DNA of 64,000 bases from Microbotryum violaceum (lineage: Eukaryota): NCBI GenBank assembly GCA_001244265.2, contig CDLV01000006.1, positions 2,046,001-2,110,000 of the forward strand, written 5' to 3'. Below are positions 27,500-32,710 of the stretch, in pieces (the stretch's first letter is position 1; the number at the start of each line of letters is the position of its first letter). The position numbers and the translations under genes were made by a program. The notes under the pieces are model-generated. The model was given only the letters and a program-made list of their open reading frames with translations, made no database searches and was not told the DNA's origin.

Positions 27500-30065
27500 C
27501 CAGTGGGAACCCGTTAAATTAACGGGAGGATGGAATTCGAAGAATAGCAGGATAATCGAACAGTCTACATGATTTCAGCGCAGAGGTTAAGAAAACACAA
27601 TACGAAGTACAGCAAAGAAACAAAATCCATTCATCACCGGAACAGCCTGGCCGTTGCTTGTTGCCGGACTTGGCTTTGAGCACTCGTGCAATGAGATCCG
27701 GACGGTTGTATGCTTTGTCGTTCGGCCCCAGTGCAGCCTTGATTTCGGCCATTCGGGGTTGCACGTCACCGTGATGAACAGCGAAGGCTTCCCATATTTG
27801 ACGACACACGCCATCGCATCTTGGTAACGTTGCGTGACCTCCCGCGGGCTATTCTTGAACGTCGACCCCAATATCACCGAACGTCCAATCTGATCCGGGG
27901 TCAAACCGTTGGCAACGGCGTCGGTGATGCCCTGCGCCGTGGTGAGGCGCAGGTTCTCTTGATAAAGCAGATATAGTTAAGTCGATCGGTCTCGAGTTGG
28001 GAGTATCCGTCAATGACAAACTCGAGGAAGAGACGCTGTGTGGTATGTGGGATTGAGAAGTAGTCGCCGTGTTCGTGCAAGTAGTATGCAAGATATTCCT
28101 CGTTTCCTTGATGATCGTCCTAGATGTTCGAACATTCTATGTGAGTCTGTGCTTGCGCCTTCGGCAGAATGGAACATCAGAGAAAGAGCCGAAGACGCGT
28201 ACGTTCGCCATCACCATCCTCTTCGTCCCCTTCCTCGCCGTCTTCATCCTCATTGTCGCGGTCTTCGTCCTCCTGTTCGTCTTCGTCATCCAGACCGAGA
28301 CCGGCAAGTACCTCGCGCAATTGGACACCATTGTCGATCTGCTCTCAGTTTCTGGCGTTTGGCGGCCTGGCTTGGTGGAACCCCGCAAAGAGGAATGTTG
28401 AGGTGGGAGCTATCTTCCTCTGCGGGGAAGAGTAGTGGGTAACGGAGAGGCATCGCAGACGGATGGAGCGAGCTAACGATTTGGTACTTGGGCCGACCAT
28501 CGGGACATCGATCACCGTGCACCTGGAGAATAAGGTCTTGCGGTCCACGATCTCCCGTGTTGGTGTCGGAATCGCAGATAAGCATCGCCATTTCCGTGCT
28601 CGACGTAGGAAGGTTGTGGGTGCGTCGGTCTCGGCCTGGTGGTAGGCAGAGGCGCAGGACCCACTCTTTGGCCGTATCCCAACCCGCGCGGGCTTTGGCC
28701 GATGCGAACTCCCTCACAAAGCGATTGCCGGTGCGCAACATGGACTCGAGCTTGGTCAGCGTTGATCTTTGAATGCGAGTCTCTGCGCTGTCGGGTCCTT
28801 GAAGTCGTGTGTCGGTGGCCTCGGCCGGGTCGATCAGCCATGTCTGGGCAAAGGCTGGGCGTTGATTCACGGCAGGGATCAGGGCACCGAGTCGATGATA
28901 GAGGCGGCCGAACACGCGAAACACGGGAGGTCCTAGAGTGCCCACTTGGGTTTGGTCCCAGCAGTAGGCAGCGAGCGAAGTAAAGGACAACGCGTTATTG
29001 TAAGACCGGGCATTCTCGCGGAATGCTTTAGAGTCTGTGTAGGTGCATCACACAGTTCAGCATGTGGGCCATACTGCAGAGAGATGTTGTTGGACGGAGC
29101 AACTGACCGCTATCCGAGCCTTGAAGAAGCTGCCGATACTCGAGATTGGGCTGGGGAGGGGGAGGTAGCTGCACCTTGCCCTGCGAAAACGTGGGGCTTG
29201 AGGGGTTTGAGCGCGATTCGAGCCCGGCGCACTCGCCTTTGCGGAGGTGGTGGTGGGGCGAGCCCAGCGTCGAGTTGGCCATCGCGCTGACGACGCTGTC
29301 CGTTCTGCACAGCTGCACGGCGGGCTCGTATACGTGTCGCAATGCCAAGATCGGTTGCATTGTTGTCATGACGCGCGGGGGCTGATTCTGTTGATCGGAG
29401 CGGGACGAAGAGGAGGGTCGAGCCGCGGGGCGCCCAGCAGCGGGCGCTCGAGCAGGCCCATGGTAGCCCATGGTACGGCGCTACCCTCGCGCCCAAGACT
29501 TGGCGAGGCTGCGATGGCCCTCCCTGAGTCCCTGGCGACCTTGGGACCGGGACATAGCAGCGAGGGTTTGTTCTTGAATGAGTGTCACTAAAATTGGATG
29601 AGAGTGAGAGGGAGAAAGGAAAGGTTCGAGGGAGCGGCGCAGGATTATTTACGTGGTTTGATATGTTGTTCAGCCCCTAATGCCGCTGGTCGACTGCCGG
29701 AATGACACTGACACCGCCGACGCACCGCATCACGTGACAAACGCCAGCCCTCGCCTCGCGCGTCAGGCAGAGCTCTGCTGTAGAAGCAATATCATGCAAA
29801 GCCACGCGCTTGCGGTTCATTAAATGCAATATGAGTGGAAGCATTGGTTTATGTCAGCGAAGCAAAGAAAGAAAATACTGGGAGCGCTGTAGCTTCGCTG
29901 GAACGGCGCGGAAAATACAAAAGTCACCACAGGGCTTGTACATGACTTCTGATCGGAACTCCGACACCACAGGCAGGTGCGGCAGACACAACAGTATGCT
30001 GGTACATCCACCACAGGCGGCCCTCCAGGCCGCAACCTAGTTAAAAACAGCGATTTTAGGTACAT
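27500..30065 (-). mobile_element. Non-autonomous Helitron, left arm
   Basis: Rep-region fragments SSLHPSAMPLRYPLLFP and GRSVILGSTFKNSPREVTQRYQDAMACVVKYGKPSLFITVTCNPEW. On the minus strand the 3' end is hairpin CCCGTTAA-T-TTAACGGG + TTCCCA + CTGG|T, ending at 27500. Confidence 0.9.
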
Positions 30066-30088
30066 TCCTTAACTCACACTTTTTTTTT

Positions 30089-30127
30089 ACTAGTTAGGGT
30101 AATAGTTAGGGTAACTAGTTAGGGTAA
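30089..30127. repeat. Three tandem (C)TAGTTAGGGTAA units containing TTAGGG
   Basis: ACTAGTTAGGGTAA-TAGTTAGGGTAA-CTAGTTAGGGTAA lies in the 81-bp spacer between the Helitron arms. Confidence 0.9.
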
Positions 30128-30146
30128 AAAGGTCGATCCGCGACCC

Positions 30147-32710
30147 ATGTACCTAAAATCGCTATTTTTGACTATGTTGCGGGCCTCTGGGCCGCCTATA
30201 GTGAATGTACCAGTACAGTATTGGGTCTGCCGCACCTGCCTGTGATATTGGGGTCCCGACCAGAAGTCATGTAGCACCCTTTTCGCATTTTCTGCACCAT
30301 GAAAGTCGAGCTACAGCCCGAGGAATTTTTTTGTTGATTTTTGGCGGGGTGCCCGACTATTGAGGAGTTTATGTGAAATTTAATGTATAGCAAGCGCGTG
30401 TGTTTGCATGACACTTCTTCTACAGAGCTCCGGGGTGGTCTCGCCGTCATTGACGTGCGGGCGCAGGCGCGGCTACGCTGCGCGTCGCCCCGTCGATCAC
30501 GTGACGTATTCTTTCCCTTCCGACACCGGTTTTAGGGACTCAACAACAACATGAGGTTCCAGGCGCTGTGAATACTCCCGCGCTGCTCTCTCTAATTTTC
30601 ACCTTTTCGCTACCACTCTCATCGAATTTTCGTAACAACAGCGCCGAGTCTTTGGCGCGAGGGTAGCGCCGTACGATAGCGTGCCGCGGGCTGCCGCGGG
30701 AATATGGGGAGACCAGGCCCGCTAGGCGCCACGCTCCTCTTCTCTCCTCTTGGTCCGGGTCCGATCAACAGGATCAGCTCCCCGCGCGTAATGACAACAA
30801 TTAACCAACCTTGGTATTGCGAGTATAAGCGTCCGCCATACAGCTTTGTAGAACGGATAGCGTGGTCAACGCGATGGCCCGATGGCCGAACTGACGCTGA
30901 GCTCGCCCCACCACCACCTCTTCCTGCGCAGAGCAAGTGCACAGGCCTCGAACCCCGCTCAAACCACTCAAGCGCCACGTTCCCATCCGCGACTACCTCG
31001 GCCCCAAATGGCCGTGTGCACCCACTGCAAGGCTCGGCACTGGGAGTGCGAAAGGTCGAAGTCGACCAGACACTTCAGCGCGTGCTGCTCGCAGGGCAAG
31101 GTGCGGCTACCTCCCCCTCCCCAGCCCAATCTCGAGTATCGGCAGCTTCTTCAAGGCTCGGATAGCGGTCAGTTGCTCCGTCCAACAACATCTCTCTGCA
31201 GTATGGCCCACATGCTGAACTGTGTGATGCACCTCCACAGACGCTAAAGCATTCCGCGAGAATGCCCGGTCTTACAATAACGCGTTGTCCTTTACTTCGC
31301 TCGCTGCCTACTGCTGGGACCAAACCCAAGTGGGCACTCTAAGACCTCCCGTGTTTCGTGTGTTCGGCCGCCTCTATGATCGACTCGGTGCCCTGATCCC
31401 TGCCGTGAATCAACGCCCAGCCTTTGCCCAGACATGGCTGATCGACCCGGCCGAGGCCACCGACACACGACTTGGACCGGACGGCGCAGACCTTCGCATA
31501 CAACGATCTACTTTGACCAAGCTCGAGTCCTTGTTGCGTACCAAGAATCACTTTGTGAGGGAGTTCGCATCGGCCAAACCTCGCGCAGGTTGGGATACGG
31601 CCAAAGAGTGAATCCTGCGCCTCTGCCTCCCGCCAGGCCGGGACCGACGCACCCACAACCTTCCTACGTCGAGCACGGAAATGGCGGCGATGCGGCGATG
31701 CTCATATGCGATTCCGACACCAACACGGGAGATCGTGGACGTCAAGACCTTATTCTCCAGGTGCACGGTGATCGATGTCCCGAGGGTCGGCCCAAGTACC
31801 AAATCGTTAGCTCGCTCCATCCGTCTGCGATGCCTCTCCGTTACCCACTACTCTTCCCCGCAGAGGAAGATAGCTCCCACCTCAACATTCCTCTTTGCGC
31901 GTTCAACCAAATTGGGCCACTCTTTGCCAAAAGACCGCGACGAGGAGGAAGGGGACGCAGAGAATGGTGATGGTGAACGTAAGCCCTTTCGGCTCTTTCT
32001 CGGATGTTCCATTCTGTTAAGGCGCACGCACAGACTGACATTGAACGTTTGAACACCTAGGACGAAGCTCAAATAAAGGGGAGCGAGGTGACGAGTCTCG
32101 CGTTCACAGTTATTAGCGTACGACTTGCACAAACGCGACCAATACTTCTCAATCCCGCATTGCACCCAACGTGGCTTCCTGGCGTTCGTAATGACGGATA
32201 CTCCCAGGTCGAGACCGATCGACTCAACTTACCTCCAGTTGGATCAAGAAAACCTCCGCCTCACCACGGGCCAAGGCATCATCAGCTTGACCCCGGATCA
32301 AGCTGGATGTTCGGTGATTTTGGGCTCAACGTTCAAGAATAGACCGCGCGAGAACACGCAGCGTTACCAAGATGCGATGGCGTGCGTCGTAAAACATGGA
32401 AAGCCTTCGCTGTTCATCACGGTGACGTGCAACCCCGAATGGCCTGAAATCAAGGCTGCACTGGGGCCGAACGACCAAGCAAGCAATCGACCGGAACTCA
32501 TTGCACGAGCGTTTGAATCCAAGTTGAACCGACTCTGTGACGACAACGTTTTTGGCAACAAGCAACGGGCAGGCTGTTTGTGAATGGAGAACTGTTTCTT
32601 TGCTGTACTTCGTAGTGTGTTTATTCAACCTCTGTTGAAATCATGTACACTGTTCAATCCTCCTGCTATTTGAATTCCACCCTCCCGTTAATTTAACGGG
32701 TTCCCACTGG
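30147..32710 (+). mobile_element. Non-autonomous Helitron, right arm
   Basis: Zn-finger-like CTHCKARHWECE..CCSQGKVRLP, intron 31169-31240, AFRENARSYNNALSFTSL, YQDAMACVVKHGKPSLFITVTCNPEWPEI..RPELIARAF. Hairpin at 32684-32700, then CTGG|T at 32707-32711. Stops and frameshifts; no helicase domain. Confidence 0.92.

Follow-up and report, generated by a model that had tools for sequence, protein, structure and literature searches.

How can two members of one Helitron family come to lie head to head, with both of their 3' ends facing outwards? The question is raised by a 64,000-nucleotide stretch of the Microbotryum violaceum genome (contig CDLV01000006.1, positions 2,046,001 to 2,110,000; hereafter the window), in which a left arm (L) and a right arm (R), both of Helitron origin, form an imperfect palindrome of 5.2 kb. 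An earlier note, made from the sequence alone, had proposed a composite, fold-back Helitron produced by strand switching and possibly mobilised as a unit, leaving as its alternative that one member of the family had been targeted to the head of a second. Here we describe why this alternative is the best fit to the data: to the reading that two members of one abundant non-autonomous family were brought head to head by two successive ordinary insertions at one spot, we give a probability of roughly 0.5.

The window was compared with public data of two kinds. Short-read contigs of four runs (X17, X9, X11 and X16, under three organism labels) were placed on it at 80% likeness, and what is said of them refers to the entries that were listed, namely 15 joints (of 138), 24 loose ends (of 1048) and 32 pieces (of 7600). 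The depth of a contig is not a copy number, and only the contrast in depth between L and R is used. Each run holds at most 0.64 of the sampled words of the stretch, and in none of the four runs was a single contig or read seen to span 27500-32710. Sister species are represented by related proteins from a protein search, to which labels of the form P00nn refer (P0001, P0020, etc.); 13 of these models were fetched for closer comparison.

Two colinear arms with outward 3' ends

An inverted-repeat search, a BLAST of the right arm against the window and a global alignment agree that 27500-30065 and 30147-32710 are colinear reverse complements lying 81 bp apart, as the earlier note had claimed. The global alignment presents 1939 matches, 410 mismatches and 432 gap columns, that is, 82.5% identity over aligned columns, and the right-arm BLAST found no further copy of the family within the 64-kb window. 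The identity is distributed as a mosaic. Two tracts reach 98%, one of 385 nt (28802-29186 and 31089-31473) and one of 206 nt (28384-28589 and 31694-31899), the remainder lies at 77-90%, and the 5' untranslated part, at about 30247-30640, descends to just ~42-63 matches per 100 alignment columns. The differences comprise 204 transitions and 206 transversions. Hypermutation of TCG sites, of the kind left by repeat-induced point mutation, was considered as a source of the divergence and ruled out, the TCG context being present in 7 of 107 C/T and 11 of 97 G/A differences. Because the arms are so diverged, a fold-back sequencing artefact is excluded.

Canonical Helitrons insert between A and T without target-site duplication, begin with TC at the 5' end, and finish at the 3' end with a short hairpin followed, about 10-12 nt further on, by CTRR. 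Both outer ends of the pair have this 3' form, with a hairpin of 7-bp stem and 3-nt loop and a CTGG 10 nt beyond it. In the window the hairpin is confined to these two places (2 sites, or 4 strand matches, against 0.04 expected), and its folding beats that of shuffled sequences, with z values of -2.8 and -2.6. The bases outside the pair are A at 27499 and T at 32711, no target-site duplication is visible, and in each arm's own orientation a T comes directly after the 3' CTGG. On the inner side, the homology between the arms ends in both at one and the same 16-nt motif (2 matches in the window against 0.23 expected). All these elements of the earlier description are borne out by the analysis. 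Helitron2 or Helentron elements are characterised by asymmetric terminal inverted repeats, a TT target and a hairpin after the 3' repeat; in the present pair, by eye, a stretch close to the 3' end (near 32637-32650) is weakly complementary to the 5' motif, at 9 of 14 positions. A metagenome scan with the 27-nt 3' end gave 0 matches.

The left host flank is single copy up to 27483, where two contigs (records 15 and 22) differ from it at 0-1 positions over 1394-1484 nt and stand at flank depth. The left-flank contigs end at 27418-27483; as the sequence that follows is repeated, these ends are compatible with an occupied site and with an empty one. No joint skipping 27500-32710, such as an empty site would give, was present among the 15 of 138 joints listed.

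Coding content and lineage of the arms

The Pfam domain Helitron_like_N (PF14214) is detected in both arms, with E values of 7e-24 and 2e-18, and in both it is interrupted by frameshifts and stops. Three full-length relatives of 1464-1584 aa (P0020, P0022 and P0019) join PF14214 to PF05970, the composition (Rep domain plus Pif1-type helicase) of a Helitron RepHel protein. In L and R alike, the coding part ends at residue 354 of the full-length P0020, just upstream of its RGLPHAH motif, and is joined at this breakpoint to a 3' terminal segment of ~130 nt. Since both are devoid of the HUH nuclease and of the helicase, L and R are classed as non-autonomous; neither would be able to move alone, and both would depend on full-length RepHel copies elsewhere. 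At 32579, X17 and X9 have loose ends (3 contigs each) in which, by eye, the open reading frame (ORF) continues as in P0020, which points to longer copies in the same genomes.

The truncation common to both arms, to which the earlier note had drawn attention, is thus real (same stop, at residue 354 of P0020), but it belongs to the family as a whole. Indeed, the stop is shared by 8 of the 13 fetched sister-species models, and the remaining 5 are colinear across the breakpoint. It is in the deleted form that the family as a whole has amplified.

The two arms are of different lineages. The R ORF shares 98% identity with the truncated M. silenes-dioicae models P0001 and P0002 and 73% with the full-length P0020; the L ORFs share 86% and 84% with P0020, and 75% and 53% with P0001. 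By these figures, L resembles a full-length RepHel lineage and R a truncated one, as two different members of the family. Furthermore, four other models repeat the 5' variant of L, namely P0007 (identity 100%, 26 aa), P0006 in its second element (97%, 32 aa), P0012 (89%) and P0004 (88%), and the peptides that match it align with the 5' part of R at just 60-70%. Because the variants of each arm recur in other copies in sister species, the differences between L and R pre-existed there and did not arise in place. As for the two 98% tracts, they may reflect gene conversion from arm to arm or, just as likely to judge by eye, a family-wide homogeneity; in the first of them P0004 differs from L at about as few residues as R does.

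In general, the Helitron ORFs of the pair are 91-98% identical to M. silenes-dioicae gene models, with matches also in M. saponariae and M. lychnidis-dioicae, which places the host among the anther-smut fungi of this group, and a protein search returned 81 related proteins, the majority from three Microbotryum species. The models P0006 and P0012 each run on from a truncated element into a second one, which points to head-to-tail tandems, with the neighbours lying upstream of L-type heads. Several sister-species "genes" are, in fact, Helitron artefacts (P0006, P0012, P0008, P0049, P0052, P0069 and P0074). Others of these models join the Helitron N-terminal domain to SFT2, RVT_2, xylose-isomerase-like or mitochondrial-carrier domains, and could be either annotation chimeras or cases of gene capture. 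In metagenomes, 38 loci hold relatives of the R ORF, none of them above 56% identity; they correspond to other Helitron families and were left unused.

Depth of the family in public contigs

In all four runs the arms stand at tens to hundreds of times the flank depth, which marks them as members of a dispersed, multi-copy family. The 5' part of L is deeper than that of R in every run; the excess is several-fold in three of them and about 1.5-5-fold in the remaining one (Table 1), so that most L-type heads are devoid of an R-type partner. The many joints labelled as lying on opposite strands come from other mosaic copies, which resemble L in one segment and R in the adjoining one, and are not copies of the palindrome.

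Table 1. Contig depth at the left flank and in the 5' part of each arm
Run	Flank	L 5' part (29635, 29663, 29720)	R 5' part (30326-30802)
X17	250	60,651-112,635	1,232-8,537
X9	21	1,137-3,613	170-649
X11	7.5	274-999	34-50
X16	29	812-894	178-532

Other forms of the family are seen in the same data. An X17 contig of ~single-copy depth (27625-29989) joins the first ~80-140 nt of L directly to the 3' terminal ~125 nt, which implies a putative mini-element of a few hundred bases elsewhere in the X17 genome, and all four runs share several further indel variants of the 5' untranslated part.

The 81 bp between the arms

The end of the homology between the arms is not the end of the elements. The 81 bp that separate them appear to belong to both, because other copies run into this sequence from the two sides: from the left, a contig of another L-type copy (record 17) reaches 30086; from the right, position 30144, upstream of the motif shared by R, stands at 43-76 times the flank depth in all four runs, and an R-type copy of X16 (record 12), a poor match at 77%, is aligned down to 30126. 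In addition, one X17 contig of ~single-copy depth presents the array of Table 2 up to 30127, then two other letters, and then a Helitron 3' end from 27499 on. Both leaders are repeated sequence. The 9-mer TTAGGGTAA occurs three times in the window, all of them in the array at 30089-30127, against 0.15 expected.

These data lead us to propose, at slightly better than even odds, that an L-type leader of 65 nt, composed of a 14-nt stretch, an A run, three CCCTAA-cored units of 12-13 nt and a T run, ends at 30130, that the leader of R, of 16 nt, starts at 30131, and that the two elements abut 5' to 5' without host DNA between them. A protein search with a 63-aa antisense ORF that crosses the R-leader junction found no relatives.

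Table 2. Features of the inverted pair and of its surroundings (positions in the window)
Feature	Positions	Strand	Description
Left host flank adjoining the element	27484-27499	+	T12, then GACA
Left arm (L)	27500-30065	-	Non-autonomous, internally deleted Helitron; limits from homology with R; Helitron_like_N on ORF 27587-27976; frameshifts and stops
3' terminus of L	27500-27526	-	Hairpin 27510-27526, 10 nt ending in CTGG, then T (A at 27499)
Probable 5' leader of L	30066-30130	-	14-nt L-specific stretch, A/T run, three 12-13-nt units with telomere-like core; putative assignment
Tandem array	30089-30127		Period 13, 3.1 copies, score 71; TTAGGG in each unit on + (CCCTAA in the orientation of L)
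Probable 5' leader of R	30131-30146	+	16-nt R-specific stretch upstream of the shared motif
Right arm (R)	30147-32710	+	Non-autonomous, internally deleted Helitron; Helitron_like_N on ORF 32092-32583
High-identity tract	31089-31473		Partner 28802-29186; 385 nt, 98%
Deletion breakpoint in R	32575-32585	+	~17 residues before the HUH motif of P0020; equivalent in L at about 27625-27636
3' terminus of R	32684-32710	+	Hairpin 32684-32700, 10 nt ending in CTGG, then T at 32711
Dispersed repeat Z	32791-33080	+	23-bp tandem units, ~80 bp right of R; inverted second copy 36725-37037

A proposed succession of two insertions at one site

In the scenario that we favour, L would have inserted first, on the minus strand, into a host AT dinucleotide whose two bases would now be A27499 and T32711. 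Its 5' junction would then keep an AT, formed on the plus strand by the complement of the first T of L and the host T. Such a dinucleotide at a Helitron 5' junction (host A plus the first T of the element) is self-complementary and would read AT on both strands, so that R, as a rolling-circle copy, could have entered the same dinucleotide in the opposite, plus orientation. As a result, the 5' end of R would have been placed against that of L, between 30130 and 30131, and the CTGG of R would be followed by the old host T32711, the outer junction looking like a single AT site. The supposed spacer would be the 65-nt leader of L, with its array, plus the 16-nt leader of R, and not host DNA. The reverse order, R first, would require a non-canonical CT site for L. 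The base that precedes each 5' end depends on the model: it is A for R, and A for both arms if part of the 81 bp is a host spacer; under abutment, the base preceding L is the host A, now parted from it by R.

How much targeting such an arrangement calls for can be estimated from the abundance of the superfamily. A Microbotryum assembly of 26.1 Mb and 55.4% GC contains 373 Helitron copies (PMC4469406), and the genus is described as having an unusually high share of Helitrons, 10% of transposable-element sequence (PMC4469406, PMC10502011). By our arithmetic, the random placement of 373 copies in 26.1 Mb predicts ~0.11 head-to-head pairs within 81 bp and ~0.008 within 5 bp; therefore, some targeting is likely, if the abutment is real.

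Several points weigh against this reading. None of the 5'-end candidates compared (30147/30065, where the shared motif lies; the 14- and 16-nt leaders; and 30130, the putative start of the leader) begins with the canonical TC, and the inferred first base of R is a G. The basis of the abutment is one junction contig from one run, one poor alignment at 77% and one depth figure. What the data show directly is the anatomy of the pair, its family, the separate lineages of the arms and the repeated nature of both leaders; the exact 5' ends, the sequence in which L and R arrived and the second use of the junction are inferred. The two 98% tracts require one more event, either conversion between the arms or homogeneity of the family. 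Neither an empty site nor a site with L only was seen among the listed contig joints (15 of 138), loose ends (24 of 1048) and pieces (32 of 7600). Finally, no read or contig of the four runs spans the structure, and an assembly mis-join keeps a small probability.

Alternative explanations

Part of the 81 bp could still be host DNA. Under this alternative, which we hold possible and yet distinctly less probable than successive insertion at one junction, two independent canonical insertions would have taken place in host DNA, within a short spacer rich in A/T; the elements would have as their 5' ends the 14- and 16-nt stretches that start with G, and the 51 bp between them (T9, array and A5) would be host sequence, possibly a preferred target. 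The rule of insertion between A and T is satisfied equally well, as both inner junctions come after an A run and each arm would obey it; the leaders become alike in layout, with a variable stretch of 14-16 nt followed by the shared 16-nt motif; and the X17 contig that unites the array with a 3' end would represent a second hit on such a target. Telomere-like, C-rich repeats are indeed reported to attract some Helitrons in Paramecium (PMC13085455). However, the array is found nowhere else in the 64-kb gene-rich window, the homology of the X17 contig to the window stops at the base where R begins, as it would at an element boundary, and in both protein cases the downstream member of the head-to-tail pair is L-type, which ties junctions of this kind to L-type heads.

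The fold-back origin put forward by the earlier note supposes that a single Helitron was duplicated by strand switching, during rolling-circle or host replication, and that the two halves then diverged for long in place. We consider it improbable. It would explain why the arms are colinear and share the deletion and the termini, and the 98% tracts could be remnants of once-identical arms or the product of conversion between them; nevertheless, the deletion is a family-wide trait that does not single out this pair, the divergence of the arms (17.5%, with many indels besides) lies in variants that pre-existed and are found separately in other copies and sister species, their leaders upstream of the shared motif are unrelated, and the two 5' variants differ several-fold in depth. 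A mis-join of two different Helitron copies during assembly seems to us more improbable still, even though the family is highly repeated, no contig or read spans the structure and no run exceeds 0.64 of the sampled words: the inner junction lies between unrelated leaders that share just a 5-nt A run, with no overlap on which to mis-join, a fold-back read could not have given arms so diverged, and the left flank meets L at a plausible 3' end with its T. To the mobilisation of the 5.2 kb as one composite, double-ended element, finally, we give the smallest chance. The outer AT junction without target-site duplication and the identical outer ends had suggested it, but such a junction is automatic for two inverted elements, since each has a T after its own 3' end, and says nothing of a unit. 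Rolling-circle transposition begins at the 5' end and stops at the 3' end of the same strand (PMC5148889), whereas the pair is bounded by two 3' ends and offers no outer 5' end at which to start. Moreover, the window holds no second copy of the pair, each arm has closer relatives than the other arm, the heads of L and R stand at unequal depth and, as weak evidence, the antisense ORF across the R-leader junction has no database relatives. The pair is most probably not a transposable unit.

Neighbouring sequence

The window is gene-rich fungal DNA of ~56% GC, whose genes include, among others, an AMP-binding enzyme and forkhead and ARID proteins. The gene immediately upstream of the pair codes for an NRDE-2 homologue (24668-27190; Pfam E value 4.6e-42), and its 3' end is ~300 bp from the left arm. 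NRDE-2 is a nuclear RNA interference factor. Between this gene and the pair, just before the T12 of the flank, the single-copy sequence contains GTGTC-rich tandem repeats of 10-11 bp (27337-27454).

To the right of R, the two copies of repeat Z share 80% identity over 321 bp; their depth is raised in all four runs, and no ORF bearing a Pfam domain was seen in them. The possibility that Z is a third Helitron, starting at 32711, was discarded, as its second copy shares sequence just from about 32775-32791 and its putative 3' hairpin folds no better than shuffled sequences (z 0.32). Downstream of Z, a run of 30 A (33433-33462) follows an A/G-rich stretch and could be a retroposed tail. Near the start of the window there is, in addition, an inverted repeat of 138 bp and 90% identity (615-752 and 1577-1712).

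Implications

If the sequential insertion is true, the locus would be a natural example of a palindromic AT at a Helitron 5' junction that can be hit again in either orientation, and tandem and inverted pairs of Helitrons could both be explained without a new mechanism. We may go one step further, to an idea that we regard as speculative and rather unlikely: the AT at every Helitron 5' junction of this family would be a reusable landing pad, perhaps marked by the CCCTAA leader, in which a same-sense insertion gives a head-to-tail pair and an opposite-sense one a head-to-head pair. The inverted repeat formed by the 2.6-kb arms, if read through from either side, would then give a hairpin RNA that feeds RNA interference against the family, as a "killer" locus. 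Were this so, such a locus would stand directly behind the NRDE-2 gene, coincidence or not.

The case carries, furthermore, a warning for annotation: the point at which the homology between two copies ends should not be taken for the end of the element. In Microbotryum, what is annotated as a gene in the sister species is in many cases a truncated Helitron or a tandem read-through, and Helitrons accumulate in the non-recombining mating-type regions of these fungi. The pair itself is made of ordinary parts, most likely through the repeated use of one insertion site, and does not represent a new class of mobile element.

Comparison with known systems

In the accessible literature on head-to-head, tail-to-tail, inverted, composite or Microbotryum/Ustilago Helitrons, we found no inverted Helitron pair described as a unit. 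The papers on Microbotryum Helitrons (PMC4469406, PMC10502011) concern the same host genus, as judged by protein identity, and in their accessible parts give counts at the level of the superfamily, with no termini, subfamilies or pairs described.

Head-to-tail arrays of Helitrons are recorded in Myotis, maize, rice and Drosophila (cited in PMC2267711 and PMC5148889). The Microbotryum family also forms head-to-tail neighbours (P0006, P0012 and the X17 junction contig), in agreement with the remark of the earlier note that Helitrons usually multimerise in this way. In contrast, L and R are inverted, an arrangement that rolling-circle replication with read-through cannot yield.

The telomere-repeat-targeting Helitrons of Paramecium (PMC13085455) resemble the present case in that C-rich repeats of telomere type directly precede a 5' end and, in one contig, immediately follow a 3' end. 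Unlike them, the Microbotryum repeats are 12-13-nt units of which just the core is telomere-like, occupy a gene-rich internal region, and could belong to the element instead of being its target.

Among fungi, the FoHelis of Fusarium oxysporum insert next to the 5' ends of their own kind, and a composite of opposite orientation has been proposed for them (PMC5148889). They share with our pair the fungal host and the non-canonical ends, and one FoHeli4 was found 2 bp away from the 5' part of a second copy. However, FoHelis resemble Helitron2, with other termini and target sites, and in the accessible part of this paper the composite of opposite orientation is a model for the reversal of an ORF and not, as here, an intact pair observed with its two 3' ends facing outwards.

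The closest precedent for the proposed mechanism comes from maize, where insertion into the AT created at the 5' junction of a resident Helitron, in the same orientation, has been proposed (PMC2267711). In the bacterial artificial chromosome AF466202 described there, two dissimilar Helitrons directly adjoin each other, as L and R would do. The maize pair is given as head-to-tail in the body of that paper (head-to-head in its abstract), whereas the Microbotryum pair is inverted, 5' to 5', and forms an imperfect palindrome of 5.2 kb.

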